64,000 nucleotides of DNA, taken from assembly GCA_050010635.1 (NCBI GenBank), contig JBEKKR010000014.1, forward strand, positions 2,876 to 66,875, given 5' to 3'. This stretch comes from Candidatus Limnocylindrales bacterium (lineage in GTDB: Bacteria; Chloroflexota; Limnocylindria; Limnocylindrales; CSP1-4). The stretch's first letter is position 1. Each line of letters opens with the position of its first letter. The translations under genes were made by a program, and so were the position numbers. Below are positions 8,028 to 34,764 of the stretch, in pieces. The notes beneath the pieces are model-generated. The model saw nothing but the letters and a program-made list of their open reading frames with translations. It searched no databases and was not told where the DNA came from.

Positions 8028-8840
8028 GTGTCGGAAAGGAAGCAGAAGTCGCCAGCCAGCCACGATCCGGCGGCCGCTCCGGCCGAGGGGGCGCGGAAGC
8101 GCGTCGTCGTGGTGATGCCTGCCTACAACGCCGCCCGGACGCTGGAACGGACGTACAGCGACATCCCGCACGAGATCGTCGACAGGATCATCCTCGTGGA
8201 CGACGTCTCCAGGGACCAGACCGTCGCGATCGCCCGTCAGCTCGGCCTGGACGTGATCATCCATCGCCAGAACCTCGGCTACGGCGGCAATCAGAAGACG
8301 TGCTACGACGCCGCCCTCGAGGCCGGCGCCGACGCTGTTGTGATGCTCCACCCGGACTACCAGTACGACGCCACCCGCATCCCCGATCTCGTGGAGCCGA
8401 TCCTGAGCGGGACGAAGGACCTGATGCTGGGCAGTCGCTTCCTCGGCGATCCGCTCGCCGGCGGGATGCCGCGCTGGAAGTACGTCAGCAACCGCTTCCT
8501 GACGGGCATCGAGAACCTCATCTTCGGCCTGCACCTGTCTGAGTACCACACCGGGTTTCGGGCCTACAGCCGCGCTCTGCTGGAGTCGATCCCCTACCGC
8601 CTCAACAGCGACGACTTCGTGTTCGACCAGGAGCTGGTGGCCCAGGCCGTGGCGAGCCACATGAGGATCGGTGAGATCGCGGTGCCAACTCGCTATTTCG
8701 AGGAGGCCAGCTCGGTCGGCTTCCGCCGCAGTGTGGTCTACGGCCTCTCGACTCTGCGGGTCGTGGCGCGTTTCCTGCTGCACCGGATGCGACTCCGGCG
8801 CTCCCGGAAGCTGGCCAGCCGGAAGCCGACGACTCGGTGA
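8028..8840 (+). CDS. GT2 family glycosyltransferase, polyprenol-phosphate sugar synthase type (DPM1/GtrB/ArnC-like)
   Basis: VVVVMPAYNAARTLE...ILVDDVSRDQTVAIA...GYGGNQKTCY...HPDYQYDATR, the classic GT-A DxD-containing GT2 signature. Confidence 0.85.
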   Translation: MSERKQKSPASHDPAAAPAEGARKRVVVVMPAYNAARTLERTYSDIPHEIVDRIILVDDVSRDQTVAIARQLGLDVIIHRQNLGYGGNQKTCYDAALEAGADAVVMLHPDYQYDATRIPDLVEPILSGTKDLMLGSRFLGDPLAGGMPRWKYVSNRFLTGIENLIFGLHLSEYHTGFRAYSRALLESIPYRLNSDDFVFDQELVAQAVASHMRIGEIAVPTRYFEEASSVGFRRSVVYGLSTLRVVARFLLHRMRLRRSRKLASRKPTTR

Positions 8841-18333: not shown

Positions 18334-18410
18334 TGGCGGGCTCGACCGGATTCGAACCGGCGATCTCCAGCGTGACAGGCTGGCATGTTAGGCCGCTACA
18401 CCACGAGCCC
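18334..18410 (-). tRNA. tRNA-Asp (anticodon GTC)
   Basis: Reverse complement gives GGGCTCGTGGTGTAGCGGCCTAACATGCCAGCCTGTCACGCTGGAGATCGCCGGTTCGAATCCGGTCGAGCCCGCCA. It has a 7-bp acceptor stem, anticodon stem CCAGC / GCTGG with loop CTGTCAC, a TTCGAAT T-loop and a CCA end. Confidence 0.85.
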
Positions 18411-18542: not shown

Positions 18543-19652
18543 ATGATCGATCTCCGCAGCGATACCGTGACCCATCCCACGCCGGCGATGCGCAAGGCCA
18601 TGTACGAGGCCGAGCTCGGCGACGACGTCTGGGGTGACGATCCCACCGTCAACGCCCTACAGGAGCGCGCCGCCGAGCTGCTCGGCAAGGAGGCCGCGCT
18701 CTTCGTCGCCAGCGGATCGATGGCCAACCTCGTCTCGCAGCTCGGCCACCTGGCCCGCGGGCAGGAGACGATCGCCGGGGCGAGCACGCACATCGTCGAC
18801 GACGAGCAGGCGGGCCACGCGGTCGTCGTCGGGACATCGATCCGCCAGATGCGCGAGAACCCGGACGGCACCTTCGACCTCGACGAGCTCGAGGAAGCCT
18901 TCCGCGACCCGTCCGACCCACACCAGCCGATCACGGGCCTGGTTGCCCTGGAGAACACCCACGCCCATTCGATGGGCCAGCCGCTCAGCCTCGAATACAC
19001 GCGGGCTGTGGCGAAGATCGCCCACGCTCACGGTGTCCCGCTCCACGTCGACGGCGCTCGCTTCTTCGACGCTGTCGTCGCCGAGGGGCTGACGCCGAGG
19101 CAGCTGGCCGAACCGTCCGACTCGGTCGCCTTCTGCCTCTCGAAAGGCCTCGCCTGCCCGATCGGCTCGATGGTCGTCGGCTCGAAGGAGTTCATCCACA
19201 AGGCCTGGCGCGGGCGCAAGCTCGTCGGCGGCGGGATGCGCCAGGTCGGCATCGTGGCCGCGGCCGGGCTCGTGGCCCTGAGCGACGGCCCCGACGGGAC
19301 GATCACCCGGCTGGCCGAGGATCACGCCAATGCCCGCCGCCTGGCCGAGGGACTGGCCGCGATGGACGGCATCGAGTCGCCCGGCGGCCTGGCCCAGCCG
19401 ACGCCCGGCCCCCTGGACCCGCGCCGCGCCACCACAAACTTCGTGGTCTTCCGCGTTCGCGGCAACCGCGCCGCCTTCCTCGACGGGATCCGGTCCCGCG
19501 GCGTGCTGATGACCGAGTACAACCACGGAACCGTCCGCGCTGTCACCCACTACGGCGTCACCGAGGCAGACATCGATCGTGTCGTGGCTGCCTGCGCCGA
19601 CGCCCTTCGCGAAACCACGACCAGGACCGCCGCCGCAGCCATGGAGCGATAG
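18543..19652 (+). CDS. ltaE: Low-specificity L-threonine aldolase
   Basis: MIDLRSDTVTHPTPAMRKAM...GDDVWGDDPT...ASGSMANL... PLP-dependent threonine aldolase family. The six-frame ORF from 18201 is an upstream over-extension. Confidence 0.85.
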   Translation: MIDLRSDTVTHPTPAMRKAMYEAELGDDVWGDDPTVNALQERAAELLGKEAALFVASGSMANLVSQLGHLARGQETIAGASTHIVDDEQAGHAVVVGTSIRQMRENPDGTFDLDELEEAFRDPSDPHQPITGLVALENTHAHSMGQPLSLEYTRAVAKIAHAHGVPLHVDGARFFDAVVAEGLTPRQLAEPSDSVAFCLSKGLACPIGSMVVGSKEFIHKAWRGRKLVGGGMRQVGIVAAAGLVALSDGPDGTITRLAEDHANARRLAEGLAAMDGIESPGGLAQPTPGPLDPRRATTNFVVFRVRGNRAAFLDGIRSRGVLMTEYNHGTVRAVTHYGVTEADIDRVVAACADALRETTTRTAAAAMER

Positions 19653-21371
19653 ATGGACGACCTGCTTCTCCCGCGTCCCGTCTCGGAGCCCACCGCCGGC
19701 CCGCTCGACGACCGGTTCTGGGACCTCGTCGAGTCGCATTTCCGGGACATGGTCAAGCGGCACCCGGTATTCGCCACGTACCAGGGCATCCACGACGCGG
19801 ACGGGGAGCTGGAGAACGGCACGCGTGACGCCGTCGAGCAGGAGATCGCGGACTCGCATCGCCTGCAGAGCGACATCCAGGCAATCGATCCGGCCGGGTT
19901 GTCGGACGGCGTCCGCCTGGAGCGGGAGCTGGCCCTCCACAACGTCCGCCGCGAGCTGTTCGACATGGAGGTCCACCGCGTCTGGGAACGGCGCTCCACC
20001 GCGATGGACGCCGTCGGCGATGCCCTCTTCGCCCCGTTCGCCCGCAACTACGCCCCGCTGGCAGAGAGGCTCGCGTCGCTGACCTCCCGGATCGAGGGCG
20101 TGCCCAACCTGCTCGAGCAGCATCGCTCGCGCGCCACCGCTCCCCAAGTCCGGCTGTGGCAGGAGCTGGAGATCGATTCCGGCGAGCAGATCCCGGGCTT
20201 CTTCGGCGAGATCAGGACGGCCGGCCACGGCGTCCTCGACGAGCGTGCCCAGGCGCGCCTCGACAAGGCGGTCGAGAAGGCCTCAGCGGCCGTGACGGGC
20301 TACCTGGCGGGGATCAAGTCGAGGATGGGCGCCACGGTCGAGTTGTGGGCACTGGGCTCGGAGACCCTCGACGGGCTGGTGAGCCTGCGCGCCTTCGACG
20401 GACTGGACGCCTCGCACATCCTCGAGATCGGCCACGAGCAGCTGGCACTCAACAAGGCCGCCCGGGTGGAGGACGCGCGCCGGATCGACCCGAGCGTGAC
20501 CGAGCCGGTCGTCGTCGATCGCGTCAAGTCGAACCACCCGGCCACCTTCGAGAAGGCGCTCGCGACCTACGAGGACGCCATGCTCAGGGCCCGGGCCCAC
20601 ATCGTCGCGCACGAGCTGGCGACGATGCCTCCGGGTGAGCAGATCTCGGTAATCCCCACGCCCGAGTACCTGCGCAACGTCATCCCGTTCGCCGCCTACT
20701 TCGAGCCGGCCAAGTTCGAGAAGCATCCGACCGGCATCTACGTCGTCACGCCCTCGGTCGGCGACGACCCGAACGCGATGCGCGAGCACAACTACGCCTC
20801 GATCAGCAACACCAGCGTCCACGAGGCCTACCCGGGCCACCATCTCCAGCTCTCCGCCGCCACCCGCCATCCGTCGCTCGTGCGGCTCCTGACCGACGCC
20901 CCGGAGTTCGTCGAGGGCTGGGGCATGTACAGCGAGCAGATGATGCGCGAGCAGGGCTTCGACGCCGGCCCGGAGTTCCTGCTGGCGATGCACACGGACG
21001 CGATCTGGCGAGCTTGCCGGATCATCCTCGACATCCGGATGCATCGCGGCGAGATCTCAGTGGACGACGCCACCGCCTTCCTCATCGAGCACACGGCCTT
21101 CGAGCACGCCAACGCCCAGGCCGAGGTCTTCCGCTACACGTACACGCCGACCTATCAGCTGAGCTACCTCCTGGGCAAGGTGATGCTTCTCCAGCTCCGG
21201 GCCGACGAGCAGTACCGCCTGGGCGACAAGTTCAGCCTCAAGGGCTTCCACGACACCCTGCTGCGCAACGGCTCGCTGCCGATCAGCTTCCACCGGCGTC
21301 TGCTGGCGGCCGAGGCCGCGAACGGCTCGGGGAACGACACCGGGAGTGGCGCGGCCCGCGCCAACCAGTAG
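19653..21371 (+). CDS. DUF885 family protein (putative metallopeptidase-like)
   Basis: 572 aa with HEAYPGHHLQ, the HExxPGHH-type motif characteristic of DUF885. Confidence 0.8.
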   Translation: MDDLLLPRPVSEPTAGPLDDRFWDLVESHFRDMVKRHPVFATYQGIHDADGELENGTRDAVEQEIADSHRLQSDIQAIDPAGLSDGVRLERELALHNVRRELFDMEVHRVWERRSTAMDAVGDALFAPFARNYAPLAERLASLTSRIEGVPNLLEQHRSRATAPQVRLWQELEIDSGEQIPGFFGEIRTAGHGVLDERAQARLDKAVEKASAAVTGYLAGIKSRMGATVELWALGSETLDGLVSLRAFDGLDASHILEIGHEQLALNKAARVEDARRIDPSVTEPVVVDRVKSNHPATFEKALATYEDAMLRARAHIVAHELATMPPGEQISVIPTPEYLRNVIPFAAYFEPAKFEKHPTGIYVVTPSVGDDPNAMREHNYASISNTSVHEAYPGHHLQLSAATRHPSLVRLLTDAPEFVEGWGMYSEQMMREQGFDAGPEFLLAMHTDAIWRACRIILDIRMHRGEISVDDATAFLIEHTAFEHANAQAEVFRYTYTPTYQLSYLLGKVMLLQLRADEQYRLGDKFSLKGFHDTLLRNGSLPISFHRRLLAAEAANGSGNDTGSGAARANQ

Positions 21372-21379
21372 CGGCGGCC

Positions 21380-22081
21380 GTGCTGGTCATCCCGTCCATC
21401 GACGTCGAGAACGGCCGCTCCCGCCTCGTCCACTGGCCGGGCGCGGCCGCGGGAGTGGGCTCGCCCACCGACCGGCCCGAGCGCATCGCGGAGCGGTTCG
21501 TCGCCGAGGGCGCCCAAATGATCCACATGGTGGACATGGACGGCGCACGGTCCGGCCGGCCGGGGAATCTCGAGGCGATGGGCCGCGTGGCCTCGAGAGT
21601 GGCGGTGCCACTCCAGGTTGCCGGGGGCATGGAGGGGCCGGACAACATCCGGCTCGCCTTCGCCGCCGGCGCCACCCGCGTCGTCGTCTCGATGGCCCTG
21701 GCTGACGACCCGGAGCTGCTCCACGCCTGCCTGGACGTGGCCGGCGACTGGCTCGCCGTCGGGCTGGACCCGCGGCCGAATCGCATTGCCGCGTATCCTT
21801 GGCATCGACCCGCGCCGCCAAACCTGACGGACCTGGCCGCAGAACTCGTGGACCACGGGGTCCGGCGGCTGGTTCTATCGCACGGCGGAGCGGTTCCGGA
21901 CCTGGCATTCCTGGCCGGGCTGGCGCGGACTCTCCGCGCCGAGCTGTTCGTGGCGGGCGGGTCCGTTGACGTCGATGCAATAAAGAGCCTGCGAGACGCA
22001 GCGATCGCAGGCATCATCCTCGGAGAGCCGCTCCTGTCCGGAGCCGTCGACTTCGCCAAAGCCCTGGAGGCCGCTTCATGA
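21380..22081 (+). CDS. HisA/HisF-family (beta/alpha)8-barrel protein, stand-alone paralog
   Basis: VIPSIDVENGRSRLVHWPG...VAGGMEGPDNIRLAFAAGATRVVV...FVAGGSVDVDAIKSL. GTG start is 9 nt after the DUF885 stop. Not embedded in a his operon. Confidence 0.7.
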   Translation: MLVIPSIDVENGRSRLVHWPGAAAGVGSPTDRPERIAERFVAEGAQMIHMVDMDGARSGRPGNLEAMGRVASRVAVPLQVAGGMEGPDNIRLAFAAGATRVVVSMALADDPELLHACLDVAGDWLAVGLDPRPNRIAAYPWHRPAPPNLTDLAAELVDHGVRRLVLSHGGAVPDLAFLAGLARTLRAELFVAGGSVDVDAIKSLRDAAIAGIILGEPLLSGAVDFAKALEAAS

Positions 22082-22812
22082 TCCTCGCCCCCGCCACGTC
22101 ATCCGTTCGCCGGCTCGCGACCGTCGGCCTCCTCGCGCTGCTTCTCGGCGGCTGCTCAACCGTGCCCAACGTGACGCCGACGCCGTCGCCGACAGCCGGG
22201 GCGACCATCCCGCCGACGGCCCCGGCGTATACCCTCGCGCCTGCGCCGTCCGGTTGTCCGACTGCCGCTCCGGCCGCCATGAGCGGGACGGCCACCGTGA
22301 CGATGTCCACCAACTTCGGCAACATCGTCATCAAGGTGGACGCCGGCCTCGGGGCGAACGCGGCCGGTACCTTCGTAGCCCTGGCCAAGTGCGGCTACTA
22401 CAACAACGTCGTCTTCCACCGCATCGTCGAGGGCTTCGTCATCCAGGCCGGGGACGGAACCTATGCCCGGCTGCCAACCCTCACTCAGTCCAAGATGGGC
22501 ACCGGTGGGCCCGGCTGGTCGATCCAGGACGACAAGGTGACGACGGCCTACAAGCGGGGCACCGTCGCCATGGCGAACACCGGCGCCGCCAATTCGGCTA
22601 GCTCCCAGTTCTTCATCGTCCTGAGCGACACGGCCTGGACGGCCACCACGCCCACGACCTATGCGATCTTCGGCAACGTGAGCAGTGGCCTGGACGTGGT
22701 CGACCGCATCGCCCAGGTTCCGACCGGCGGCGAGCCCGGCTCCGACGGCTCCCCGGCCTCGATGCCGCTCCAGCCGATCGTGATCACGGGCACCACGGTC
22801 ACCACGCCGTAG
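22078..22812 (+). CDS. Peptidyl-prolyl cis-trans isomerase, cyclophilin type, lipoprotein
   Basis: Lipobox LLGGC, Pro/Thr/Ala linker, then FHRIVEGFVIQAGDG...QFFIV cyclophilin signature. Confidence 0.85.
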   Translation: MILAPATSSVRRLATVGLLALLLGGCSTVPNVTPTPSPTAGATIPPTAPAYTLAPAPSGCPTAAPAAMSGTATVTMSTNFGNIVIKVDAGLGANAAGTFVALAKCGYYNNVVFHRIVEGFVIQAGDGTYARLPTLTQSKMGTGGPGWSIQDDKVTTAYKRGTVAMANTGAANSASSQFFIVLSDTAWTATTPTTYAIFGNVSSGLDVVDRIAQVPTGGEPGSDGSPASMPLQPIVITGTTVTTP

Positions 22813-22869
22813 GATCGACCCAGGAATTAGAGCGATATCGCCGGCCGCCGGCGAGCCGAGGAGTCACCA

Positions 22870-23361
22870 ATGACCAGGGCGACCATCGACACCGACAAGG
22901 GCGCAATCGAGATCGAGCTGAGCACGACCGGCGCACCGAAAGCGGCCGCCAACTTCATCGAGCTCGCCAAGAAGGGCTACTACGACGGCGTGGTCTTCCA
23001 CCGACTGGTACCCGGCTTCGTCATCCAGGGTGGCGACGGCGAGCACGGGCACGCCGACAAGCTCGACCGGGGGCGCCTCGGCACGGGCGGTCCCGGCTAC
23101 AAGTTCGCCGACGAACCCTTCGAAGGCGACTACGTGCGCGGCGCGGTGGCGATGGCCAACGCCGGCCCGAACACGAACGGCAGCCAGTTCTTCATCTGCC
23201 TGGCCGACCTGTCGGGCGGGCAGCTACCCAAGAAGTACACCCTGTTCGGACATGTCACGAGCGGCATGGACGTGGTGGATGCCATCGCGGCCTCAAAACG
23301 CGACAGCCGAGACCAGCCGGTCGAGCCCACGGCCATGCGCTCCGTGAAGATCGCCGAATAG
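22870..23361 (+). CDS. ppiB: Peptidyl-prolyl cis-trans isomerase, cyclophilin type, cytoplasmic
   Basis: YDGVVFHRLVPGFVIQGGDG...NAGPNTNGSQFFIC. Confidence 0.9.
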   Translation: MTRATIDTDKGAIEIELSTTGAPKAAANFIELAKKGYYDGVVFHRLVPGFVIQGGDGEHGHADKLDRGRLGTGGPGYKFADEPFEGDYVRGAVAMANAGPNTNGSQFFICLADLSGGQLPKKYTLFGHVTSGMDVVDAIAASKRDSRDQPVEPTAMRSVKIAE

Positions 23362-23640
23362 TCGTTTACGAGTCAATTTGCGGCCCGTTGCGCCGGCCGC
23401 AACATTGTTGTAATCAAAGCCTCACAAAGTTGCGGGATTTTAACCCATCCGGCCGCCAAAACCCTTGGATTGAAGGCAGAAGGGGCTGTAGACTTTAGAA
23501 GCTGCCAGTCAGCCTGCTGCCCCAGTTACAAGGTCATGGGTAGGTCGGGTTAGGGTAGTCGGTGCAGCCGACGTGATAGATGCCTTTGTAGCGTGGCAGA
23601 AGACGATCCGCTTCGGCGGAACGACCCTTCACCGGGACAG

Positions 23641-23666
23641 CAACGAAGCGGCTCCTTCGGGAGCCG
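23641..23666. other. Perfect 11-bp stem / UUCG tetraloop hairpin (GAAGCGGCUCC-UUCG-GGAGCCGCUUC) inside a 370-bp low-GC convergent intergenic region
   Basis: Seen directly in the sequence. A second smaller CCGC-UUCG-GCGG hairpin sits at ~23607-23618. Function unknown; could be a bidirectional terminator or part of an sRNA. Confidence 0.35.
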
Positions 23667-23727
23667 CTTCGACTTTAACTCGCTGTTGAGACCGGGAATC
23701 GAGGGGTAGGTAGCGTCCGGGCGGCAA

Positions 23728-24681
23728 TCAGCGAATTGCGGCCGCCACGATCGGCAGAAGCGCCGCATCGATCTCGGCGTCGCTCGGACCGCATTGAACC
23801 CTGGCCAGGCTCCAGGATTCGACGTGGTCCACGTGAGCCCCGGGCTCGAGCCTGGTCAACGGTCCGAGGGTCTCCACCTCGAGCATCTCGGGGTCCGTGT
23901 AGGTCTCGGTGTTGCAACCCATGTCAGCGTACGTGGCGCGCGGGTCGTACCCGTAGCGGACGATTAGGGCATCGCCGCCGAGCAGGTAGGCCGCCCAGCC
24001 CTGCTTGTTGAGGAAGCCGACCTTCTGCTTCGTCGTCGCCGCCGGATCCTGGCGGAGCTGGATGTACTTGCGGCCCCAAGTCCAGCGCGGATCGCTCATG
24101 TCGGTGAAGTGCCACAGCACAAGCGGCCGGGCCGGCGCGAGCATGTCCGGATGGGGCAGGAACTCCTCCTGCGGGTAGATCGCCCGACCACCCGGGGCCA
24201 TGACCGAGAGGGCCCAGGGCGCAAGCTCGACGGCCCAGGGGTTGCGATTGACCAGGCGGTGGGTGACCTCGACGCACGGCGACGTGGGAGACACCGTGAC
24301 GCGCATCTCCTTGGCGATCCCGTTGTCACCCTCCGAGTTTCGGAGGACGAGGGTGGCGCCGTCCCAGGCGTGCTCGACGGGTCCGTTGTCCGGAGCGTAG
24401 GTCCGCGGGAAGACCTCGGGCGCATGCCACAGCCGGTGGCCGCCGTAGCTGTGCCACTCCCTGTCGCCGGTCCGACCCAGCGTCGCCTCGTAGTTCTTGA
24501 AGAGGTTCTGGCCGCCTATGAAGCCGAGCCGGATTATCCGCGGGCCGACGTCGGTCGTGGCCACGAGCTCGATCTCCCCGTTGGAGATACGGATTGAGCT
24601 CGGCCACCCACCGTATTCGACCGTCTCGATCGCCAGGGAATCTTCATTCATGGGAACGATCCACCTCGCTTGTCTTGTCAT
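23728..24681 (-). CDS. Hypothetical protein
   Basis: 317-aa ORF with good GC3 bias and no clear family signature. Start uncertain (M1 or M11). Confidence 0.5.
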   Translation of the reverse strand: MTRQARWIVPMNEDSLAIETVEYGGWPSSIRISNGEIELVATTDVGPRIIRLGFIGGQNLFKNYEATLGRTGDREWHSYGGHRLWHAPEVFPRTYAPDNGPVEHAWDGATLVLRNSEGDNGIAKEMRVTVSPTSPCVEVTHRLVNRNPWAVELAPWALSVMAPGGRAIYPQEEFLPHPDMLAPARPLVLWHFTDMSDPRWTWGRKYIQLRQDPAATTKQKVGFLNKQGWAAYLLGGDALIVRYGYDPRATYADMGCNTETYTDPEMLEVETLGPLTRLEPGAHVDHVESWSLARVQCGPSDAEIDAALLPIVAAAIR

Positions 24682-25051: not shown

Positions 25052-25849
25052 GTGGAGATACCGGGCGCCCGGCCGGCCGAGGCGCCGGCCCAGCCGCAGT
25101 TCCTTACGGTCGGGGGCATCCGGATCCGGTACGCCTCCCGGGGGAGCGGCCGGCCCCTTCTTCTGCTGCACGGTTGGGGGACCTCGCTGGACACGTTCGA
25201 CGGCATGGCGGCCGACCTGGGGCGCTCCTCCCGCGTCACCGCCTTCGACTTCCCAGGCCACGGCGAGTCGGACCTGCCGCCGGCCACGTGGCATGTCGAC
25301 GACTTCGTCGGGCTCACACTGCGCCTGATGACGGAACTGGGGATCGAGCGGCCGGCCATTCTCGGCCATTCCTTCGGCGGACGCGTGGCCATCAAGCTGG
25401 CGGCCGCGCATCCGGAGGCGGTCGAACGGCTGGTCCTGGTCGACGCCGCCGGAGTGCCGCCGCGCCGGACCATCCGCCGGGCGACGCGGCGCGCCGCCTC
25501 TCGGTTCGCCAACGCGGTAGGACGCCGGCTCGGCCGGCCCGGGCAGGCGGTCCGTGGCGCGATCGTCCGCCGGATCGCGTCGCCGGACTACCTCAACGCG
25601 GGCCCGCTCCGAGCCACGTTCGTGGCGATCGTGAACGAGGATCTCCGGCCGGCGCTCGGCGCCATCAAGTGCCCTACCCTGCTGGTCTGGGGCGAGTCGG
25701 ACGACGACACGCCGCTGGCCGACGCGCGGACCATGGAGAAGCTGATCCCGGACGCCCACCTCCTGGTCCTGAAAAACGCCGGGCACTTCTCGTACCTGGA
25801 CCAGTACGGCCGGTTCCGGCTGGCCGTCATCCCGTTCCTGAATGGCTAG
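25052..25849 (+). CDS. Alpha/beta hydrolase fold protein
   Basis: LLLLHGWGTS...FDFPGHGESD...ILGHSFGGRVAIKLAA (GxSxG nucleophile elbow)...GESDDDTP...NAGHFSY. The 5' end is uncertain: the six-frame ORF starts at 24497 but overlaps the minus-strand gene, so an in-frame GTG at 25052 is proposed. Confidence 0.65.
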   Translation: MEIPGARPAEAPAQPQFLTVGGIRIRYASRGSGRPLLLLHGWGTSLDTFDGMAADLGRSSRVTAFDFPGHGESDLPPATWHVDDFVGLTLRLMTELGIERPAILGHSFGGRVAIKLAAAHPEAVERLVLVDAAGVPPRRTIRRATRRAASRFANAVGRRLGRPGQAVRGAIVRRIASPDYLNAGPLRATFVAIVNEDLRPALGAIKCPTLLVWGESDDDTPLADARTMEKLIPDAHLLVLKNAGHFSYLDQYGRFRLAVIPFLNG

Positions 25850-27512
25850 CGGCGTGGACCCGGTGCAAGTCGTCGTACTGACGCTCGTGGCCGCCACAGC
25901 GATGGTCCTGGGATTTCGCCAGCTGCTCGGGAGCGTCCACGCGCTGCAGCAGGACGACTACTCGAACCGCCGGTTCCTCGGTTGGGTTCGCAAGTCGAAG
26001 GGCCAGTTCCCCGGTCCGGCAGTGGCCGCCTTCCTGGTCGCGGCATTTGCCGAACGTACCCTGGCGTTGTCGGGCGTCGACTGGCTCGCTTACATCGCGC
26101 CGATCCTAGCGGCCGGCGCTGCCGTCGCGTTCACCCTGTGGCGGCTCGAGAGGACTCCGAGCAAGAAGCCTCTGGTCTACACCGGCCGGGTGCGACGTCT
26201 TCTTGTCGCCTCGGTGATGCTCGAGGCTCTCCTTTTCGCAGCCGTCTACTTCGCTCAGACACGGTGGGGCGAGGTCACGGGAGCCGTGCCTGGCTCGTAC
26301 TCGTCCGGGCTTGGTGTGACCGTGGCGGCGATGATCTCGATCTTCGCGGCACCGGCCGTCGCCATCGCCGCCAACCTGGTCCTCGGGCCGGTCCAGGCCA
26401 CGATCAACTACTCCTACCGGGTCCGGGCCGCGCGCAAGCTGCGACGCCTCGGGCCGATGGTGGTGGGGATCACCGGGAGCTACGGCAAGACCTCCACCAA
26501 GTACTTCACCGAGGCGCTCCTCGAGCCGCGCTTCCGCGTCCTCAAGACCAGGGCCAGCTTCAACACGATCCTGGGCGTCTGCCGGGCAATCAACGAGGAG
26601 CTGGGCCCGGAGCACCAGGTCCTGATCGTCGAGATGGGCGCATACCGGCGCGGCGAGATCCGCGACATGGCCCGCCTGACCCGGCCCCACATCGGCGTCC
26701 TGACGGCTATCGGGCCGCAGCATCTCGAGCGCTTCGGCAGCATCGAGACGATCGAGAAGGCCAAGTTCGAGCTGCTCGAATCGCTCGCCCCCGACGACAT
26801 CGCCGTCATCAACAACGACGACCCGCGCGTCCACCGGCTGGCCGGTGAGAACTGGCTCCCGAACGTCCAGCGCTACGGCATCGACGCGCCGGCCGGAACC
26901 CTCGACCTGGCCGCTGAGGAGATATCGCACGGACCCGAGGGCCTGAGCTTCACCCTGGTCGAGAGGAACGGCACGCGGACGCCTGTGAAGACGCGGCTGA
27001 TCGGCCTTCACAACGTGTCGAACATCCTGGCCGCGGCGACGGTCGCGAAGTCCGCCGGAGTAAGCCCCCAGGAGATGGCCCGCGCGATCGGCCGCCTGCA
27101 GCCCGTCCCCCACCGCCTCGAGGCCCGCACCGGGCCGGACGGCGTGACGATCATCGACGACGCCTACAACTCGAACCCGGTCGGGGCCTTCAACGCCCTC
27201 GACGCCCTGGCGGCCTTCAAGACGGGCCGGAAGCTGCTGGTCACGCCCGGCATGGTCGAGCTCGGAGCCGAGCAGGACGAGTGGAACGAGAAGTTCGGCG
27301 CGAAGGCCGCGGATGTGTGCGATTCCGTCATCCTGGTCGGCACGCGCCAGACCGCGGCCATTCGGCGCGGCCTCGACGGAGCGGGCTTCGCCGCCGACCG
27401 CGTGAATTCGGTGCGCAACCTCGACGACGCCCTGGAGGCGCTCAAGGGTATCGTTCGGGCGGGCGACGTCGTGTTGTTCGAGAATGATCTCCCCGACCTG
27501 TACGAGGAGTGA
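25842..27512 (+). CDS. Mur ligase family protein (MurF-like UDP-MurNAc-tripeptide D-Ala-D-Ala ligase) with a ~190-aa polytopic N-terminal membrane domain
   Basis: Central P-loop VVGITGSYGKTSTKYF, Mur-ligase middle and C-terminal domains (DDAYNSNP, LVTPGMVELG). This is preceded by 4-5 hydrophobic helices instead of the usual soluble N-domain. Confidence 0.75.
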   Translation: MASGVDPVQVVVLTLVAATAMVLGFRQLLGSVHALQQDDYSNRRFLGWVRKSKGQFPGPAVAAFLVAAFAERTLALSGVDWLAYIAPILAAGAAVAFTLWRLERTPSKKPLVYTGRVRRLLVASVMLEALLFAAVYFAQTRWGEVTGAVPGSYSSGLGVTVAAMISIFAAPAVAIAANLVLGPVQATINYSYRVRAARKLRRLGPMVVGITGSYGKTSTKYFTEALLEPRFRVLKTRASFNTILGVCRAINEELGPEHQVLIVEMGAYRRGEIRDMARLTRPHIGVLTAIGPQHLERFGSIETIEKAKFELLESLAPDDIAVINNDDPRVHRLAGENWLPNVQRYGIDAPAGTLDLAAEEISHGPEGLSFTLVERNGTRTPVKTRLIGLHNVSNILAAATVAKSAGVSPQEMARAIGRLQPVPHRLEARTGPDGVTIIDDAYNSNPVGAFNALDALAAFKTGRKLLVTPGMVELGAEQDEWNEKFGAKAADVCDSVILVGTRQTAAIRRGLDGAGFAADRVNSVRNLDDALEALKGIVRAGDVVLFENDLPDLYEE

Positions 27513-27520
27513 GGAGCCAA

Positions 27521-28708
27521 ATGGCCAATCCGACCGTGGCCGTCCTGTTCGGCGGCCGGTCAGTCGAACACGAGGTCTCCATCATCTCGGGCCACCAGGC
27601 CATGGATGCGCTCGACCAGGCGGGCTTCCCCGTCCTCCCGATCTACATCACCAAGCAGGGTGACTGGTACGCCGGCGAGGGGCTCCACAACCTGGACCTC
27701 TACCGCGAGCAGACCTTCCACGCGGCCGGGCTGAAGAACGTCCACCGCGTCAGCCTGAGCCCGGACCGGTCGATCCGGCAGCTTGTGATTCATCCCGGCT
27801 CAGGCGGCGGCCTGCTTGGCGGCAAGAGCCCGAAGCTCTGGGCCGACGTCTTCTTCCCCGTCTTCCACGGCACCCACGGTGAGGATGGGTCCCTCCAGGG
27901 ACTCTTCGAGATGGCCGACGTGGCGTACGTGGGGTCGGGCGTGCTGGCCTCCGCGATCGGGATGGACAAGGTCTTCCAGAAGGGCGTCTTCGAAGGAGCC
28001 GGCATCCCGGTCCTCGACTGCCTGGAAGTTTCGCGGGCCGAATGGGAGGCCCGCCGGGACGCCGCGGTAGCCGGAGTCGAATCGAAGTACGCCTACCCGG
28101 TGATGGTCAAGCCGGTTCGCCTCGGCAGCAGCGTCGGCGTCTCCAGCTGCACCGATCGGACCGCCCTCAACGATGCGCTGGACCTCGCGCTGGAGCTCGA
28201 CGGCCGTGCCCTGGTGGAGCAGGCCCTCACCGATTTCATCGAAATCAACTGCTCGGTGCTCGGACCGCCCGAGCGCGCCTCGGTCTGCGAGCAGCCGGCC
28301 CGGTCGGATGCCGTGCTCTCCTTCGACGACAAGTACAAGCACGGCGGAAGCAAGAAGCTCGGTCGTGGTCAGGCCCAGAGCTCGGGTATGGCCGGCCTCC
28401 AGCGCCAGGTGCCGGCGCCGATCGGGGAGGCCCTCACGGCCGAGGTGCGGGGGCTCGCGAAGAAGGCATTCCGCACCATAGGGGCCAGCGGCGTGGTTCG
28501 GGTGGACTTCCTCTACGACCGGGCCACAAGCCGGCTGCTGATAAACGAGATCAACACCACCCCGGGATCGCTCAGCTACTACCTCTGGGAGGAGGAGGGG
28601 CTCCGTTTCGACCAGCTCGTCGCGGAGCTGGTCCGGATCGCGCTGGACCGGCACGAGCTGCAGCGCGCCACGGTCTACTCGTTCTCGGCGAACTTGCTGA
28701 CGCGGTAG
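27521..28708 (+). CDS. ddl: D-alanine--D-alanine ligase
   Basis: VAVLFGGRSVEHEVSIISG...FPVFHGTHGEDGSLQG...MDKVFQK... ATP-grasp Ddl family. GAGGAG RBS 5 nt upstream. Confidence 0.9.
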   Translation: MANPTVAVLFGGRSVEHEVSIISGHQAMDALDQAGFPVLPIYITKQGDWYAGEGLHNLDLYREQTFHAAGLKNVHRVSLSPDRSIRQLVIHPGSGGGLLGGKSPKLWADVFFPVFHGTHGEDGSLQGLFEMADVAYVGSGVLASAIGMDKVFQKGVFEGAGIPVLDCLEVSRAEWEARRDAAVAGVESKYAYPVMVKPVRLGSSVGVSSCTDRTALNDALDLALELDGRALVEQALTDFIEINCSVLGPPERASVCEQPARSDAVLSFDDKYKHGGSKKLGRGQAQSSGMAGLQRQVPAPIGEALTAEVRGLAKKAFRTIGASGVVRVDFLYDRATSRLLINEINTTPGSLSYYLWEEEGLRFDQLVAELVRIALDRHELQRATVYSFSANLLTR

Positions 28709-28787
28709 CGGTAGCGGGAGCGGGCGCGGGCTCCGGCGGCCGGAAGACCTCGCCGGCGGGTTTATCGTTTGCCGCAGGGAGGCGACG

Positions 28788-29807
28788 ATGTTGGGACTTG
28801 CCGAACCGATCGACGGCATCACCGTTGACTGGCTGCTGGAGCCGGCGGACCCCGCGGTCCGGCACCTGGCCCTCCGCCAGATCGTCGGCAGACCGGCCAC
28901 GGACGCGGAGGTCGTCGAGGCCCGGAAGGCCGCGATGGCGTCCCGGCCGATCGCCCCGGTTCTCGCCGCGCAGGATCCGGAGGGCTGGTGGGTCAAGCCC
29001 GGCGGCGGCTACTCGCCCAAGTACAGCGGCACGGTATGGAGCCTGATCTTCCTGGATCAGATGGGCGCGGACGGCGCCGATCCCCGGATCAGGACGGGCT
29101 GCGAGTACCTGCTCGTGCACACTCAGGCCGGCAACGGCGGTCTGGCGATCGGGATGTCCGGCGACGGACCCGAGCCGTCGCGCGTCGTCCACTGCCTCAA
29201 CGGCAATCTCCTGCGGGCTCTCATCGACTTCGGCCGGCTCGACGACGAGCGCGTCCAGCGCGCCCTGGCCTGGCAGGCGGCCGCCATCACCGGCGACGGG
29301 ATGGGGCGCTGGTACGCGACGACCCCCGGCCCCGGGTTCCTCTGCGGCCCGAATGCGGGCCGGCCCTGCGCCTGGGGAGCGGCGAAGGCCGTCCTGGCTC
29401 TCGCCCGAGTCCCCGCCGAGCGGCGCAGCCCGGCGGTCGCGCGGGCCCTCGAAGCGGGAGCGGCATTCCTCCTGAGCCGGGATCCGGCCGTGGCGGACTA
29501 CCCCATGCCGCCCGGCAACACGAAGCCGAACGGCTCGTGGTTCAAGCTCGGCTTCCCGTCCGGCTACGTGGCCGACGTGCTGCAGGTCCTGGAGGCGCTG
29601 TCCGATGCCGGCGCCGCCGGGAACGCTCGCCTTGGCCCGGCCTTCGACTGGCTCCTGGAACAACGCGGCACGGACGGCCGGTGGGCCAACAACTACACGT
29701 ACCAGGGCAAGATGGTCCGCGACATCGACCGCACCGGCCGGCCGAGCAAGTGGGTCACGCTGCGGGCTCTTCGGGTTCTCAAGGCTCGCGCGGAAGCCCT
29801 GAGATAA
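28788..29807 (+). CDS. Prenyltransferase/squalene-oxidase-repeat (QW-motif) alpha/alpha-toroid protein, function unknown
   Basis: QW-type motifs QDPEGWW and QRGTDGRW, plus repeated GG-containing helical hairpins (GNGGLAIG, GDGMGRW) typical of terpenoid-cyclase/prenyltransferase-beta-like barrels. 339 aa is a single-barrel size. Confidence 0.5.
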   Translation: MLGLAEPIDGITVDWLLEPADPAVRHLALRQIVGRPATDAEVVEARKAAMASRPIAPVLAAQDPEGWWVKPGGGYSPKYSGTVWSLIFLDQMGADGADPRIRTGCEYLLVHTQAGNGGLAIGMSGDGPEPSRVVHCLNGNLLRALIDFGRLDDERVQRALAWQAAAITGDGMGRWYATTPGPGFLCGPNAGRPCAWGAAKAVLALARVPAERRSPAVARALEAGAAFLLSRDPAVADYPMPPGNTKPNGSWFKLGFPSGYVADVLQVLEALSDAGAAGNARLGPAFDWLLEQRGTDGRWANNYTYQGKMVRDIDRTGRPSKWVTLRALRVLKARAEALR

Positions 29808-29934
29808 TCGGCCTCCCTTCGGAGATCCACCCCGATCGCCGACAACTCAGCCGCGTGCAACTCAATTGCGTCCAATTCGCCGGCGCCCGCAAGGCCGGCT
29901 TCAACCGACGACCAGACGCACAGGAGCTGATCGC

Positions 29935-31263
29935 TTGACGACTCTCGACTTTCCGCGTGATTTCCTCTGGGGCGCCGCCACCAGCGCCCACCAGGTCGAG
30001 GGCGACAACGTCAACAGCGACTGGTGGGATTGGGAGCTCGCGCCGGGCACCCATTGCAAGGCGCCCAGCGGCAAGGCCTGCGAGCACTACACGCGCTACC
30101 CGCGGGACATCGAGCTCCTGGCGGCTCTCGGCCTCAACACGTACCGCTTCTCGGTTGAGTGGGCCCGGATCGAGCCGTCCGAGGGCGTCTTCGACCCGGA
30201 GGCGCTCGATCACTACCGGCGGGTCGTCGAATGCGTGCTCGAGAACGGCCTCGTCCCGATGGTGACGCTCAACCACTTCACGCTTCCGCGCTGGGTCGCG
30301 GCCGAAGGCGGCTGGACGTGGAATCGCACCCCAGCGCTGTTCGAGCGCTACAGCCGTCGCGTGGTAGACGCGCTCGGCGACGGCGTGCCGTGGTACTGCA
30401 CGATCAACGAACCGACGGCGATGTCCACCGGCGGGTACATGAGCGACTGGGGATTCCCGCCCCGCGTCGTGGACCCGCGGAGATGGCGGACCTCGATCGC
30501 CGCGCTCATCGACGCGCACCGGCGGGCCGTCATTGCGATCCACGAGCTCCGGCCCGGGGCGAAAGCCGGGCTGGCGGCCTTCACCGTCGAAACGGTGGCC
30601 AATGCGGGCGGAAAGCCGGCGGCCGATTACGCGCTGCGCATGAACCAGGACATCTTCCTCGAGGCGACGGCCGACGACGACTTCATCGGCGTCCAGACAT
30701 ACACCCGCAACCACCTGTTCCTGCCAAGGATCGCGGCTCCGCTGACGCGGCTGGCGCTTGCCGTCCGCCCGATCGAGGATCGCATCGCTGCCCGGCTGCT
30801 CGACCTCAAGACCGCGGCGCCGGGCACTCAGGCCCTGCCCGGCCAGCGCGTGACCCAGATGGGCTGGGAGTACCGCCCCGAGGCGCTCGCCGCAGTCGTG
30901 CGGCGGATCGCGAAGCTGTGCCCGGGCAAGGATCTGGTCGTGACGGAGAACGGCGTTGCCACCCTCAAGGACACGGAGCGAGTCGAGTTCATCACGCGCG
31001 CTCTTGCAGCGCTCCACGAGGCCATGGCGGAAGGGGCGCCGGTTCGCGGCTACATCCACTGGAGCCTGATGGACAACTTCGAATGGGCCCACGGCTACGG
31101 CCCGAAGTTCGGCCTGATCGCCGTCGACTTCGAGACTCAGGAGCGGACGGTCCGGCCATCCGGCTTCTACCTCGGCGGTATCGCGAGGAGCGGGCAGCTG
31201 TACGTCGAGGATGCGGGTCCCGCCGAGGCGGCGACCGCGACGTCGAGGCCGGCGACGGCCTGA
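29935..31263 (+). CDS. GH1 family beta-glucosidase
   Basis: FLWGAATSAHQVEG, TLNHF, catalytic acid/base INEP and nucleophile VTENG. TTG start preceded by an AGGAG RBS. Confidence 0.85.
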   Translation: MTTLDFPRDFLWGAATSAHQVEGDNVNSDWWDWELAPGTHCKAPSGKACEHYTRYPRDIELLAALGLNTYRFSVEWARIEPSEGVFDPEALDHYRRVVECVLENGLVPMVTLNHFTLPRWVAAEGGWTWNRTPALFERYSRRVVDALGDGVPWYCTINEPTAMSTGGYMSDWGFPPRVVDPRRWRTSIAALIDAHRRAVIAIHELRPGAKAGLAAFTVETVANAGGKPAADYALRMNQDIFLEATADDDFIGVQTYTRNHLFLPRIAAPLTRLALAVRPIEDRIAARLLDLKTAAPGTQALPGQRVTQMGWEYRPEALAAVVRRIAKLCPGKDLVVTENGVATLKDTERVEFITRALAALHEAMAEGAPVRGYIHWSLMDNFEWAHGYGPKFGLIAVDFETQERTVRPSGFYLGGIARSGQLYVEDAGPAEAATATSRPATA

Positions 31264-31273
31264 CGTCCCGAGA

Positions 31274-32728
31274 TCAACCGGCGCCGGGTCCGCCCGCTAC
31301 TGCCGCCGGCTGGGCCGGCGCCTGGTCGGGGTGGTGGGGCGCCGATCCGCGGATCAGGCTGGCGACCACGCCCACGCAGCAGATCAGGGCCGCGACCGCG
31401 AAGGCGTCGTGGATGGCGCCGGCGAGGGCCAGGTTCTGAGCCAACACGCTCGGATGCCCGCCGGGCGGTATGACCAGGTGCGCAGGCAGCCGAGTTGCGA
31501 CGATGGCCGCGCTCACGGCGATGCCCAGCGCCTGACCGTTGACGCGCATCTGGGCCAGCGTCCCGGAGGCCGTGCCGACGCGCGGCCGCGGGACCGAGCC
31601 GAGCACGGCGCTGCTGTTCGGGCTCATGAAGAGCCCCTGGCCGATCCCGAGCAGCACGAGCCGCCAGATGAGATCCGGCAGGCTGAAGTCCACGGGCAGC
31701 TGCGTCAGCGAAAGCAGGCCGAGGACCATGATCGCCATCCCCGCGCTCGCCGGAAGCCGCGGGCCGAGCCGGTCCGAGACCGTGCCGCTGAGCGGAGCCA
31801 CGATCGCCATGGTTATCGGCACGGGGGTCAGGAGAAGGCCGGCCTCGATCGGCGAGAAGCCGCGGCCCTGCTGGAGCAGGAACGGCAGCAGGAACGTCGC
31901 GGTGAACAGGCTCGCAAAGGCGACCACGACGGCGACCAGTCCGGCCGTGAACGGTCGAATTCGGAAGAGGGCGAGATCGATCATCGGCTGAAGCGCGTGG
32001 CGTTCGACGTACAGGAAGGCCGAACCGAGCACGAGGAATGCGAGCAGCAGGGCCACGATCGCGGGGCCGGTCCAGCCCCAGCTCTGGCCCTCGCTCAGTG
32101 CGAGAAGCAGCGAGAAGAGCGCGACGCCCGAGAGCATCGCCCCCACGACGTCGAACGATTGGCCCTTGCCGCGCTCCTCAGCCGGCAGGATTCGCGCGGC
32201 CCACACGATGGCCAGGATCCCGATCGGGGCGTTGATGAGGAAGATCGCTCGCCACGTGGCGGCCTGGGTGAGGATGCCGCCCAGGGCCGGCCCGAGGCTG
32301 AGCCCGATCGAGACGCTGACGCCGTTGAGACCGAGGGCTCGCCCTCGCTCGTTGGCCGGGAAGGTGCGGGCCACGATCGCCGGCCCCATGGCCATGATCA
32401 TCGCCGCTCCCATCGCCTGGACGACCCGAAACCCGATCAGCGTCAGCTCGTTGGGCGAGGCGCCGCAGCAGACGCTGGCGACGGTGAAGACGGCGAAGCC
32501 GACCAGGTAGACGCGTTTGAACGTGAGAACCTCGCCCAGCCGGCCGAACGGCAGGAGCAGGCTGCCGACCACGAGCAGGTAGGCGACCACGACCCACTCG
32601 ACCGTCGTGAGGTCGATCCGGAAATCCGTCTGGATCGCGGGAAGGGCGATGTTGACGATGCTGCCGTCCAGCGTCGCCATGAGCGACCCGAGCGAGACGC
32701 TCGTCAGGATCAGCCACTTGCGCTGCAT
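31274..32728 (-). CDS. MFS transporter, DHA2-like 14-TM drug:H+ antiporter family
   Basis: MQRKWLILTSVSLGSLMATLDGSIVNIALPAIQ...; 14 predicted TM. The six-frame ORF to 33295 is an upstream over-extension; start placed at MQRKW (cat 32726-32728). Confidence 0.85.
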   Translation of the reverse strand: MQRKWLILTSVSLGSLMATLDGSIVNIALPAIQTDFRIDLTTVEWVVVAYLLVVGSLLLPFGRLGEVLTFKRVYLVGFAVFTVASVCCGASPNELTLIGFRVVQAMGAAMIMAMGPAIVARTFPANERGRALGLNGVSVSIGLSLGPALGGILTQAATWRAIFLINAPIGILAIVWAARILPAEERGKGQSFDVVGAMLSGVALFSLLLALSEGQSWGWTGPAIVALLLAFLVLGSAFLYVERHALQPMIDLALFRIRPFTAGLVAVVVAFASLFTATFLLPFLLQQGRGFSPIEAGLLLTPVPITMAIVAPLSGTVSDRLGPRLPASAGMAIMVLGLLSLTQLPVDFSLPDLIWRLVLLGIGQGLFMSPNSSAVLGSVPRPRVGTASGTLAQMRVNGQALGIAVSAAIVATRLPAHLVIPPGGHPSVLAQNLALAGAIHDAFAVAALICCVGVVASLIRGSAPHHPDQAPAQPAAVAGGPGAG

Positions 32729-32790
32729 CGGGTGATTGTGCCTTCTCTGCTGGCCGGCGCCGGGCCGCGGCGGCGGGGTTGCAGACTTGG

Positions 32791-34764
32791 CTACTCGGCG
32801 GTGTCGACGACGTCGAGGATTTCCGCGCCGTACCGCTCCAGCTTGGCCGGGCCCATGCCTCGGACCCGGCGCAGCGCGGGCAGCGTCCGCGGCCGCACTT
32901 CGGCGATCTCGGCGAGGGTGGTGTCGTGGGCAACAACGTAGGCGGGAACGGCGTCCGCCGCGGCCCGCGCGCGGCGCCAGACCCGGAGCGCCTCGATGAG
33001 CGTGTCGTCGGCAGGCGCGGCCGTGGCGATCGGAGCGCCCGGCAGGACGTGGACGCGGCGCTCGCCCTTCGCGGCCGCGGGTCGGGCACCCGGCCGGGCC
33101 CCGGCCCGGGGCGGCTCGACGGCGGCGAGGAAACGCGACGGCTTGCGGCTCGATGACGACAGCGCGAGGAACCTCCGAGCGCGGGTGATCCCGACGTACA
33201 GGAGACGGCGCTCCTCCGCGACCTCCTCGTCTTCCTTTGCCTGGCGGATCGGCAGGATGCCCTCGTCCAGCGCCGGCAGGTAGACAGCGTCCCACTCGAG
33301 CCCCTTGGCCCGGTGGTAGGTCAGCAGGTTTACGCCCTCGGTCGATCCGCCTGCCTCGGCGGCTTGCCGCCGGTCGAGCTCGGTCAGCGCGGCATCGATG
33401 ACGAGATCGGAGTCGGCGGCGGCAAGGTCGCCGAATATGCCGACTAGCAGCTCCAGCGAGGCCGCGCGGTCTCGACCCTCCTGGCCCGTATCCGCGGCCA
33501 CGTCGTCAAGGCCGAGCTTCTCCACGAACAGCCGCTCCACGGCGTCGACGAGTGCGGCGCCGGTCGCATCCGGGCGGGCGCGGCGCAGGAGCTGCCGCGC
33601 GTCGCGGATCTCACGGCGATCGAAGAACCGCTGGCCGCGCACGGTGAACGGGACGCCGGCCCGCGTCAGCGCTTCCTCGATCGGCGGCAGCTGGGCGTTG
33701 ATCCGAACGAGCACCGCGATCTCGGTGAGCGGGACCCCGGCGTCCCCGACCGCCCGGATCCAGGCCAGGATCTCGCCAAGTTCGGCTTCGGGGGTCGCGA
33801 AGCGATGGATGGCGGGCGGCGGCGCCGCGGGCCGAGTGGCCACAAGCGCGCCGCGCGGCCCATCCCCCACGAGCCGGTTCGCCAGCTCGAGGATCTGCGG
33901 GCTCGAGCGGTAGTTCTCGGCCAGCGTCACCGTCCGCGCGCCCGGGTGTCGCTCGGAGAAGCGCAGCAGGAACTCGGGCGTGGCGCCCGTGAAGGTGTAG
34001 ATGGTCTGGTCAGGGTCGCCGACGACGGCGAGGTCGCGCGACTCGCCCATCCACAGCTCGAGGAGCCGCTCCGAGAGCGGGTTCGTGTCCTGGTATTCGT
34101 CGACGCTTAACCAGCTCTTGCGAGAGCGCACGAGGGCGCCCGCCTCCGCGTCGCCTTCGAGCAGCTCGACGGTCCGGACGAGCATGTCCTCGAAGTCGAG
34201 CAGACCCGCCGCGGCCTTGGCTCGCTCGTAGTCCCGGTACAGGCGGGCGAACAGGTCGGGCCTTGTCGGAGCCCGATTGCCTCCCTCGTGGACCCACCGC
34301 TCGGGCCGGATTCGGCGGACCTTAGCCCACTCGATGGCGTCCGCGACGTCCCTGGCCGGCGTGAACCGATACCCGCCCGGCAGCCGGCCGATGAGCGGCA
34401 CGAGCAGGCGCAGCTTCGTATCCAGGATGGCTGGCATCTCGGCGCCGTCGTGGCGGCTCGGCCAGAAGTGCCGCAACTGGGCCAGTGCGGCCGCGTGGAA
34501 GGTTCGCGCCATGACGCCCCGATGACCGAGCGCCGCCATCCGCTCGACCATCTCGCTGGCGGCCCTGTCCGTGAACGTCACGAGCAGGATCTGGTCGGAG
34601 GCGACCGCTCCGGTTTCGATCGCGTAGGCCGCCCGCCGGCTGATGACCCGTGTCTTGCCCGAACCGGCGCCGGCGACGATAGCCAGCGGCCCGGAGGTCG
34701 TCGTGACGGCCTCGCGCTGCGATGGATTGAGGTCTTCGAGCAGTCGTTCGGGATCGAAGGTCAA
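32791..34764 (-). CDS. UvrD/REP-family ATP-dependent DNA helicase with C-terminal HRDC-like domain (UvrD2-like)
   Basis: Walker A AGAGSGKTRV, helicase motifs (DEYQDTNP, VGDPDQTIY, TYHRAKGLEW), and a C-terminal region LRVWRRARAAADAVPAYVVAHDTTLAEIA resembling HRDC. Confidence 0.85.
   Translation of the reverse strand: MTFDPERLLEDLNPSQREAVTTTSGPLAIVAGAGSGKTRVISRRAAYAIETGAVASDQILLVTFTDRAASEMVERMAALGHRGVMARTFHAAALAQLRHFWPSRHDGAEMPAILDTKLRLLVPLIGRLPGGYRFTPARDVADAIEWAKVRRIRPERWVHEGGNRAPTRPDLFARLYRDYERAKAAAGLLDFEDMLVRTVELLEGDAEAGALVRSRKSWLSVDEYQDTNPLSERLLELWMGESRDLAVVGDPDQTIYTFTGATPEFLLRFSERHPGARTVTLAENYRSSPQILELANRLVGDGPRGALVATRPAAPPPAIHRFATPEAELGEILAWIRAVGDAGVPLTEIAVLVRINAQLPPIEEALTRAGVPFTVRGQRFFDRREIRDARQLLRRARPDATGAALVDAVERLFVEKLGLDDVAADTGQEGRDRAASLELLVGIFGDLAAADSDLVIDAALTELDRRQAAEAGGSTEGVNLLTYHRAKGLEWDAVYLPALDEGILPIRQAKEDEEVAEERRLLYVGITRARRFLALSSSSRKPSRFLAAVEPPRAGARPGARPAAAKGERRVHVLPGAPIATAAPADDTLIEALRVWRRARAAADAVPAYVVAHDTTLAEIAEVRPRTLPALRRVRGMGPAKLERYGAEILDVVDTAE

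Follow-up and report, generated by a model that had tools for sequence, protein, structure and literature searches.

The 64,000-nucleotide stretch of Candidatus Limnocylindrales bacterium contig JBEKKR010000014.1 analysed here (the window) encodes a MurF-like ligase, which we call TM-MurF, whose N-terminal part is not the soluble domain of canonical MurF but a polytopic domain of five predicted transmembrane (TM) helices. The TM-MurF gene lies between genes for an alpha/beta-fold serine hydrolase (abh) and a predicted D-Ala-D-Ala ligase (ddl), and these three genes form a conserved unit, the triad, that recurs in several phyla. We consider it probable, at about three chances in four, that TM-MurF is the housekeeping MurF held at the membrane, with Ddl as its supplier of D-Ala-D-Ala.

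The triad is tightly packed on the forward strand of high-GC DNA (~68% across the window). The hydrolase gene (25052..25849; 265 amino acids (aa), or 287 aa from an alternative GTG start at 24986; Pfam Abhydrolase_1/6) lies directly upstream of the TM-MurF open reading frame (ORF; 25842-27512; 556 aa), and its stop overlaps the TM-MurF ATG by 8 nt (ATGGCTAG). The ddl gene (27521..28708) follows, its ATG at 27521 standing directly 3' of the TM-MurF stop within the purine-rich stretch GAGGAGTGAGGAG, with a GAGGAG/GGAG Shine-Dalgarno sequence. This ATG is probably the true start, matching independent gene calls of 395 aa. In three public contigs of identical sequence, independent calls for the triad and the next three genes gave 265 or 287, 556, 395, 339, 442 and 484 aa. 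The window is also contained in a 144-kb ENA contig (ERZ4200889 NODE_136_length_144178) that extends a further 71 kb upstream.

TM-MurF is a MurF by two of its three domains and, as these predict, by function. The ATP-binding (central) and C-terminal domains (aa 206-556; 26457..27512) were identified as MurF by hidden Markov model (HMM), PDB sequence search and fold, with Pfam placing Mur_ligase_M at 210-402 and Mur_ligase_C at 424-546 and with the P-loop VVGITGSYGKTSTKYF at residues 207-222. These domains carry the motifs GSYGKTSTK (P-loop), EMGA, GPQHLERF, KxxFEL, NNDD, GxHNVSN, HRLE, DDAYNSNP and TPGMVELG, invariant among TM-MurF homologues (for three of the last four, as HNVSN, HRL and PGMVELG). 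Thus TM-MurF has the central domain with P-loop and catalytic motifs and the MurF-type C-domain (DDxYNxNP, GxMxELG) but lacks the third element of the family architecture, a soluble N-domain that contacts uridine diphosphate (UDP). The NCBIfam murF model TIGR01143 scored 248.7 bits, below its cut-off of 288.6, and aligned only over profile positions 65-403 of 418; a Poribacteria orthologue, at 265.9 bits, also fell below the cut-off. Because TIGR01143 positions 1-64 find no match and PDB MurF chains align only from chain residue ~91 on, the canonical N-domain has been replaced and has not merely diverged. We therefore file TM-MurF as a MurF variant and not as a plain member, which is how public annotation labels its homologues. 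At the other end of the protein, the motif VLFENDLPDxY (aa 544-556) is invariant across phyla, with AlphaFold confidence, given as the predicted local distance difference test (pLDDT), below 50 at 551-556; a role as a docking peptide is possible, with the hydrolase and MraY among the candidate partners.

The membrane domain (aa 1-205; 25842..26456) matched no Pfam family at residues 1-205 and no fold relative in the PDB. Hydropathy places its helices at ~8-30, 58-77, 81-100, 117-141 and 154-187, all ahead of the P-loop. AlphaFold modelled the whole protein with a pLDDT of 89.8 and a predicted template modelling score (pTM) of 0.84, and residues 1-205 alone likewise with a pLDDT of 89.8, giving helices at 7-37, 42-51, 58-77, 80-100, 115-146 and 151-203, the last kinked at P171 and P183 and continuing directly into the first ligase strand. 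Over 89 sequences, the lysine plus arginine content of successive loops and segments alternated (0.02, 3.6, 0.1, 4.9, 0.3 and 5.9), indicating five TM helices with the N-terminus predicted outside and the ligase inside. Conservation across phyla clusters at three places in the domain. Two are basic loops with a predicted cytoplasmic location, the first carrying H33, Q36, Y40, R44 and W48 and the second K108, K109, P110, T114, R116 and R119; the third is the point where the last helix ends and enters the ligase, with P183, I188 and N189. These two invariant basic loops probably replace the nucleotide-binding domain; sited where domain 1 of MurF would be, they may bind the diphosphate-sugar end of the acceptor.

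A sequence-only reading of this stretch had described ~190 residues with 4-5 hydrophobic helices before the P-loop, which hydropathy and AlphaFold refine to five helices over ~200 residues, and had considered that these codons might not be translated. They are: more than 100 full-length homologues (550-565 aa; 45-79% identity; 95-100% of the query covered) keep the start MAS..., and a third-position GC content of 0.73-0.90 over the first 190 codons fits a translated frame. The membrane domain is therefore conserved in orthologues down to 45% identity. The same reading had allowed that this might simply be the MurF architecture of the lineage; that much essentially holds, but among bacteria such an architecture is out of the ordinary, and a hydrolase partner is conserved alongside it. 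A profile search with the N-domain returned 1177 clusters at 50% identity. Short carriers of the domain, considered as possible stand-alone membrane proteins, were set aside: nearly all of those inspected stop in or just after the P-loop or central domain, marking them as truncated gene calls, and in one case, P0124, the gene call is chimeric or frameshifted.

We compared the neighbours of TM-MurF by BLAST in 80 loci from a one-genome-per-species collection and two long metagenome contigs. The hydrolase gene was adjacent and co-directional in 73 of the 80 loci, ddl in 69 and both in 66, and where a partner was lacking the contig mostly ended there. Gene order was abh-murF-ddl in 58 loci and ddl-abh-murF in 8 (labelled Acidobacteriota, plus one Acidimicrobiia bin). 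The conserved unit is thus alpha/beta-hydrolase, TM-MurF and Ddl. It occurs in Limnocylindrales, Ktedonobacterales, Chloroflexaceae, many Poribacteria, Acidobacteriota (Bryobacterales, Terriglobia), a Planctomycetes metagenome-assembled genome (MAG), Bipolaricaulia and others, and TM-MurF carriers amount to at least several hundred GTDB species. The Acidimicrobiia-labelled contig (L058; VFZE01000045.1) has a 1251-aa outer-membrane beta-barrel gene (CarboxypepD_reg plus OMP_b-brl_4) beside ddl-abh-murF, the Acidobacteriota gene order, and is probably mis-binned; the taxon labels of the short contigs L020 (Enterobacteriaceae) and L019 (Syntrophaceae) also look doubtful.

The hydrolase, which the sequence-only reading had overlooked, is an obligate partner of TM-MurF, as adjacency, the stop/start overlap, gene fusions and an intact catalytic triad together indicate; the two are translated together and, in some organisms, exist as one fused protein. 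It matches Pfam Abhydrolase_1 (E=4e-30), and its HGWG (oxyanion), GHSFGG (nucleophile Ser), WGExD (Asp) and AGH (His) motifs are 100% conserved in 77 orthologues from several phyla, as is the lid motif SxDYxxAGxxRxT. Full conservation of the catalytic motifs predicts a catalytically intact, active enzyme. No specific NCBIfam subfamily reached its cut-off, and among PDB and NCBIfam entries the hydrolase comes closest to generic proteins, namely esterases, meta-cleavage product (MCP) hydrolases and PcaD/BioH-like proteins. Two metagenome proteins are natural fusions, one with the order hydrolase-TM-ligase (P0224; 864 aa) and one with the order TM-ligase-hydrolase (P0197; 869 aa). P0224 has one extra hydrophobic helix ahead of TM1, as a cytoplasmic hydrolase would need if TM1 starts outside, which supports both the predicted topology and action of the hydrolase in the cytoplasm. 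Among other possibilities, it may shorten tetrapeptide or depsipeptide precursors so as to restore the substrate of MurF, or act as an esterase in some unrelated reaction.

The triad Ddl has the features of a normal D-Ala-D-Ala ligase, and we predict the corresponding activity. It exceeded the cut-offs of both NF002528 (299.2 bits against 262) and TIGR01205 (263.7 against 245.65), and its PDB matches are DdlA-type structures. The omega-loop Lys-Tyr pair (FDDKY), typical of D-Ala-D-Ala rather than D-Ala-D-Lac ligases, is kept in all triad Ddl proteins. Immediately after FDDKY, triad Ddl proteins (residues ~270-300; L001-L082) carry a lineage-specific omega-loop insertion of variable length, from 0 to ~25 aa, followed by a conserved SGMAGxxRxIPAP motif that is not in the aligned DdlA structures.

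The position of the triad in Poribacteria bears on the function of TM-MurF. In ~36 Poribacteria species the gene order is mraW-ftsL-ftsI-murE-[abh-TMmurF-ddl]-mraY-murD-ftsW-murG-murC-murB, so that the triad fills the murF slot of the division and cell-wall (dcw) cluster, and no canonical murF was found within these triad-bearing clusters. MurE in the triad-bearing cluster has its normal length of 510 aa and is not a MurE-MurF chimera. In locus L053, NCBIfam and Pfam models identified MurE (543 bits), MraY (351), MurD (403) and MurC (500), all above cut-offs, and also confirmed FtsI, FtsW, MurG and MraW; small ORFs at the ftsL and murB positions had no match to these models. The Planctomycetes MAG has murG-murC-murB 6 kb upstream of the triad. 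Occupation of the murF slot where the cluster has no canonical murF means that TM-MurF is best read as the housekeeping D-Ala-D-Ala-adding enzyme, and an enzyme of different function is hard to envisage there, since the essential murF would have had to leave the cluster. The membrane-localised housekeeping MurF that had been proposed from the letters alone thus gains support from gene order as well as from the MurF-like sequence and fold of the ligase. Under this reading, Ddl would make D-Ala-D-Ala, and TM-MurF would use ATP to join it to the tripeptide precursor carrying N-acetylmuramic acid (MurNAc). The five-helix domain would stand in for the canonical N-domain, its basic loops taking over binding of the diphospho-sugar end and keeping TM-MurF at the membrane, where MraY consumes the product.

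Several points weigh against this assignment. The window has the triad outside a dcw cluster, and so does every locus from Limnocylindrales and Acidobacteriota. The dcw cluster of Chloroflexi is, however, reported to have been split into sub-clusters in the inferred ancestor (PMC8871954), so a location outside the main cluster says little. A canonical murF may also coexist elsewhere in the genome. A tblastn search with Poribacteria dcw proteins covered the 64-kb window, where TM-MurF itself was the sole match and no second Mur ligase or dcw gene was found, and the 2.9 kb beyond one window end held no cell-wall genes. Given the sub-threshold TIGR01143 score and the absence of the UDP-contacting domain, UDP-MurNAc-tripeptide is a putative substrate. 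Finally, we know of no Mur-pathway step that requires a serine hydrolase, and a housekeeping role of TM-MurF leaves that partner unexplained.

The hydrolase finds a place in a tentative alternative, well behind the housekeeping reading in our estimate, in which TM-MurF adds D-Ala-D-Ala to a lipid-linked acceptor (an undecaprenyl-diphosphate-linked C55-PP-MurNAc-tripeptide or -tetrapeptide, that is, lipid I or lipid II with an incomplete stem) and the hydrolase trims aberrant ends (tetrapeptide, depsipeptide) to the tripeptide, the ligase and the hydrolase together forming a module that completes or repairs precursors at membrane level. An acceptor of this kind is compatible with the membrane location and with the missing UDP-contacting domain, and MurT offers a precedent, being without domain 1 and having lipid II as its substrate (PMC6085368). 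Yet the Poribacteria gene order fits the classical reaction order equally, the basic loops could equally bind the diphosphate of UDP, and the HGWG signature of the hydrolase is esterase- or MCP-hydrolase-like and not a known peptidase signature. With the same low likelihood, TM-MurF and its hydrolase would be a membrane-level completion or editing machine whose membrane domain binds the undecaprenyl-diphosphate head group, whose hydrolase removes wrong or truncated stem termini and whose ligase attaches or reattaches D-Ala-D-Ala. If so, the last 'cytoplasmic' Mur step would take place on the lipid carrier in Chloroflexota, Poribacteria, Acidobacteriota and Planctomycetota.

Slightly less probable still is that the Limnocylindrales and Acidobacteriota triads are an accessory, paralogous module beside a canonical dcw-encoded MurF, serving a recycling branch or another D-Ala-D-Ala-terminated product such as a modified membrane lipid or a carboxylate-bearing envelope component. 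The triad does lie outside any dcw cluster in these two groups, its patchy spread over distant phyla as a conserved cassette suggests a mobile module, and TM-MurF scores below the murF HMM cut-off. Against this, Poribacteria have a member of the same family in the murF slot, the reported ancestral split of the Chloroflexi cluster (PMC8871954) makes location uninformative, Ddl appears to be of the normal D-Ala-D-Ala type and, as weak evidence, the 64-kb window holds no second Mur ligase.

A ligase, a dipeptide ligase and an esterase-like hydrolase also formally recall VanA/VanX logic, and we considered a glycopeptide-resistance-like cassette that makes altered precursors (D-Ala-D-Lac or D-Ala-D-Ser) while the hydrolase destroys the normal or alternative dipeptide. 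We dropped this reading, which we regard as very improbable, on the omega loop of Ddl, with its Lys-Tyr pair in all triad members, and on the HMM scores, which lie far below the cut-off of every Van-type model; nor are VanH, VanX or VanRS encoded nearby, and in Poribacteria the triad sits within the core dcw cluster.

The sequence-only reading had reported on the same strand, after murF, ddl with a strong ribosome-binding site, a 339-aa QW-motif protein and a GH1 glycosidase, and gene calls and Pfam agree with this order. The 339-aa protein, a putative alpha/alpha toroid of the QW/prenyltransferase-like type, is encoded at 28788..29807, and the GH1 beta-glycosidase (442 aa by gene calls; Pfam Glyco_hydro_1 1.9e-75; NEP and TENG motifs) at 29935..31263. 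The link that the reading implied between these last two genes and murF-ddl does not hold up. Among the 80 loci, only those of the closest relatives, L003 and L004 (73-74% identity), have the QW gene 3' of ddl, and only L003 has GH1 after ddl-QW; other Limnocylindrales at 65-72% identity have neither beside ddl, and the QW gene is not beside ddl in L001 (71% identical) or L002 (48% identical). Co-occurrence with murF-ddl in other genomes being confined to the closest relatives, the two genes are bystanders outside the system. That they form one functional pathway with murF-ddl is thus hardly credible: the shared strand and short gaps in the window and the ddl-QW order in L003 and L004 speak for it, but the linkage is absent from the other 78 loci, including those Limnocylindrales at 65-72% identity, and the QW family is abundant on its own, a common single-copy Limnocylindrales protein with 3705 matches. 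The 339-aa protein itself matches PF13243 (SQHop_cyclase_C) only partially and at threshold (26.3 bits against a cut-off of 26.1; residues 245-323), with no NCBIfam family and no PDB sequence relative at E<=1. It is 100% identical to a protein of an NCBI MAG named 'nitrogen fixation protein NifH', as several homologues are likewise named. It bears no resemblance to NifH, and the label looks like a propagated misannotation of an uncharacterised Limnocylindrales/Chloroflexota family.

Adjoining the GH1 gene on the reverse strand is a major facilitator superfamily (MFS) transporter gene (ORF 31274-33295; 484 aa by gene calls). In DNA of such high GC content, mechanical ORFs extend beyond the true genes: gene calls shorten the MFS ORF from 673 to 484 aa and that of GH1, open from 29866, from 465 to 442 aa. 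No sigma-70-type promoter emerged from a promoter scan, and terminator-like sites were no more frequent than expected by chance. Rfam and tRNA scans of the window gave a single RNA gene, tRNA-Asp (GTC) at 18334-18410 (reverse strand). The block upstream of the triad (~19650-24680; also L001 3964-8931 and L085 866-5864) is syntenic between the window and a 71%-identical relative and encodes a DUF885 protein, a HisA-like His_biosynth protein, two cyclophilin-type peptidyl-prolyl isomerases and a divergently transcribed TTE1925-family mutarotase/DUF4380 protein. Farther away, window positions ~8030-9840 (L083 10927-12743) encode a GT2 glycosyltransferase and then a protein with an LPG_synthase_TM (lysylphosphatidylglycerol-synthase-type membrane) domain, with two DsbA-like thioredoxins and a VKOR protein slightly beyond this pair.

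Textbooks and drug-discovery work treat MurF as a soluble three-domain enzyme. The present data describe a large MurF-like family that is built differently in Chloroflexota, Poribacteria, Acidobacteriota, Planctomycetota and others, with a novel polytopic membrane domain in place of the substrate-anchoring domain. Should TM-MurF be the sole MurF of its genome, as we infer, the final cytoplasmic step of precursor synthesis could be tethered at the membrane beside MraY, the precursor's nucleotide or lipid end would be recognised in a new way, and a further hydrolytic step or quality control would be coupled to pentapeptide formation. For annotation, the consequence is that pipelines label TM-MurF as plain MurF although it fails the curated model, and name the hydrolase generically. 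The architecture is widespread and apparently undescribed: neither it nor the hydrolase association was found in the literature covered on unusual forms of MurF (transmembrane, atypical, paralogous), on the dcw clusters of Chloroflexi and Poribacteria and on Mur chimeras, a coverage that lay outside subscription journals.

Among known systems, canonical MurF is the natural point of reference. The enzymes of E. coli (1GG4), T. maritima (3ZL8) and P. aeruginosa (4CVK) have a soluble N-domain of ~80-90 aa, whereas TM-MurF has a five-TM domain of ~200 aa with invariant motifs of its own; TM-MurF further differs in scoring below the TIGR01143 cut-off, in its obligate alpha/beta-hydrolase partner and in its distinctive LFENDLPDxY C-terminus. 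A structural neighbour is MurT of the MurT/GatD lipid II amidotransferase, which also combines a Mur-ligase fold lacking the UDP-binding N-domain with a dedicated partner enzyme and acts at the membrane on a lipid-linked precursor. MurT, however, is soluble, carries a DUF1727 C-domain, activates D-Glu for amidation and has a glutaminase rather than an alpha/beta hydrolase as its partner, whereas TM-MurF retains the MurF C-domain and the DDxYNxNP motif. The poly-gamma-glutamate synthetase PgsB/CapB is, like TM-MurF, an amide ligase of the Mur-ligase superfamily tethered to the membrane by an N-terminal hydrophobic sequence. It has been placed in the branch resembling folylpolyglutamate synthetase (FPGS-like; PMC11915815). 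Its tether is a simple anchor and it polymerises glutamate; unlike TM-MurF, it lacks a MurF-type C-domain, Ddl and a hydrolase partner. Natural Mur chimeras (MurE-MurF, MurC-Ddl and MurD-FtsW, the last including a membrane protein; PMC10214165) likewise hard-wire Mur enzymes to their pathway neighbours, and MurE-MurF is also without the MurF N-terminal cap. The survey that described them took in only proteins longer than 600 aa (PMC10214165), a limit below which TM-MurF falls at ~555 aa. What sets TM-MurF apart from these chimeras is that the added part is a novel membrane domain and not another known enzyme of the pathway.

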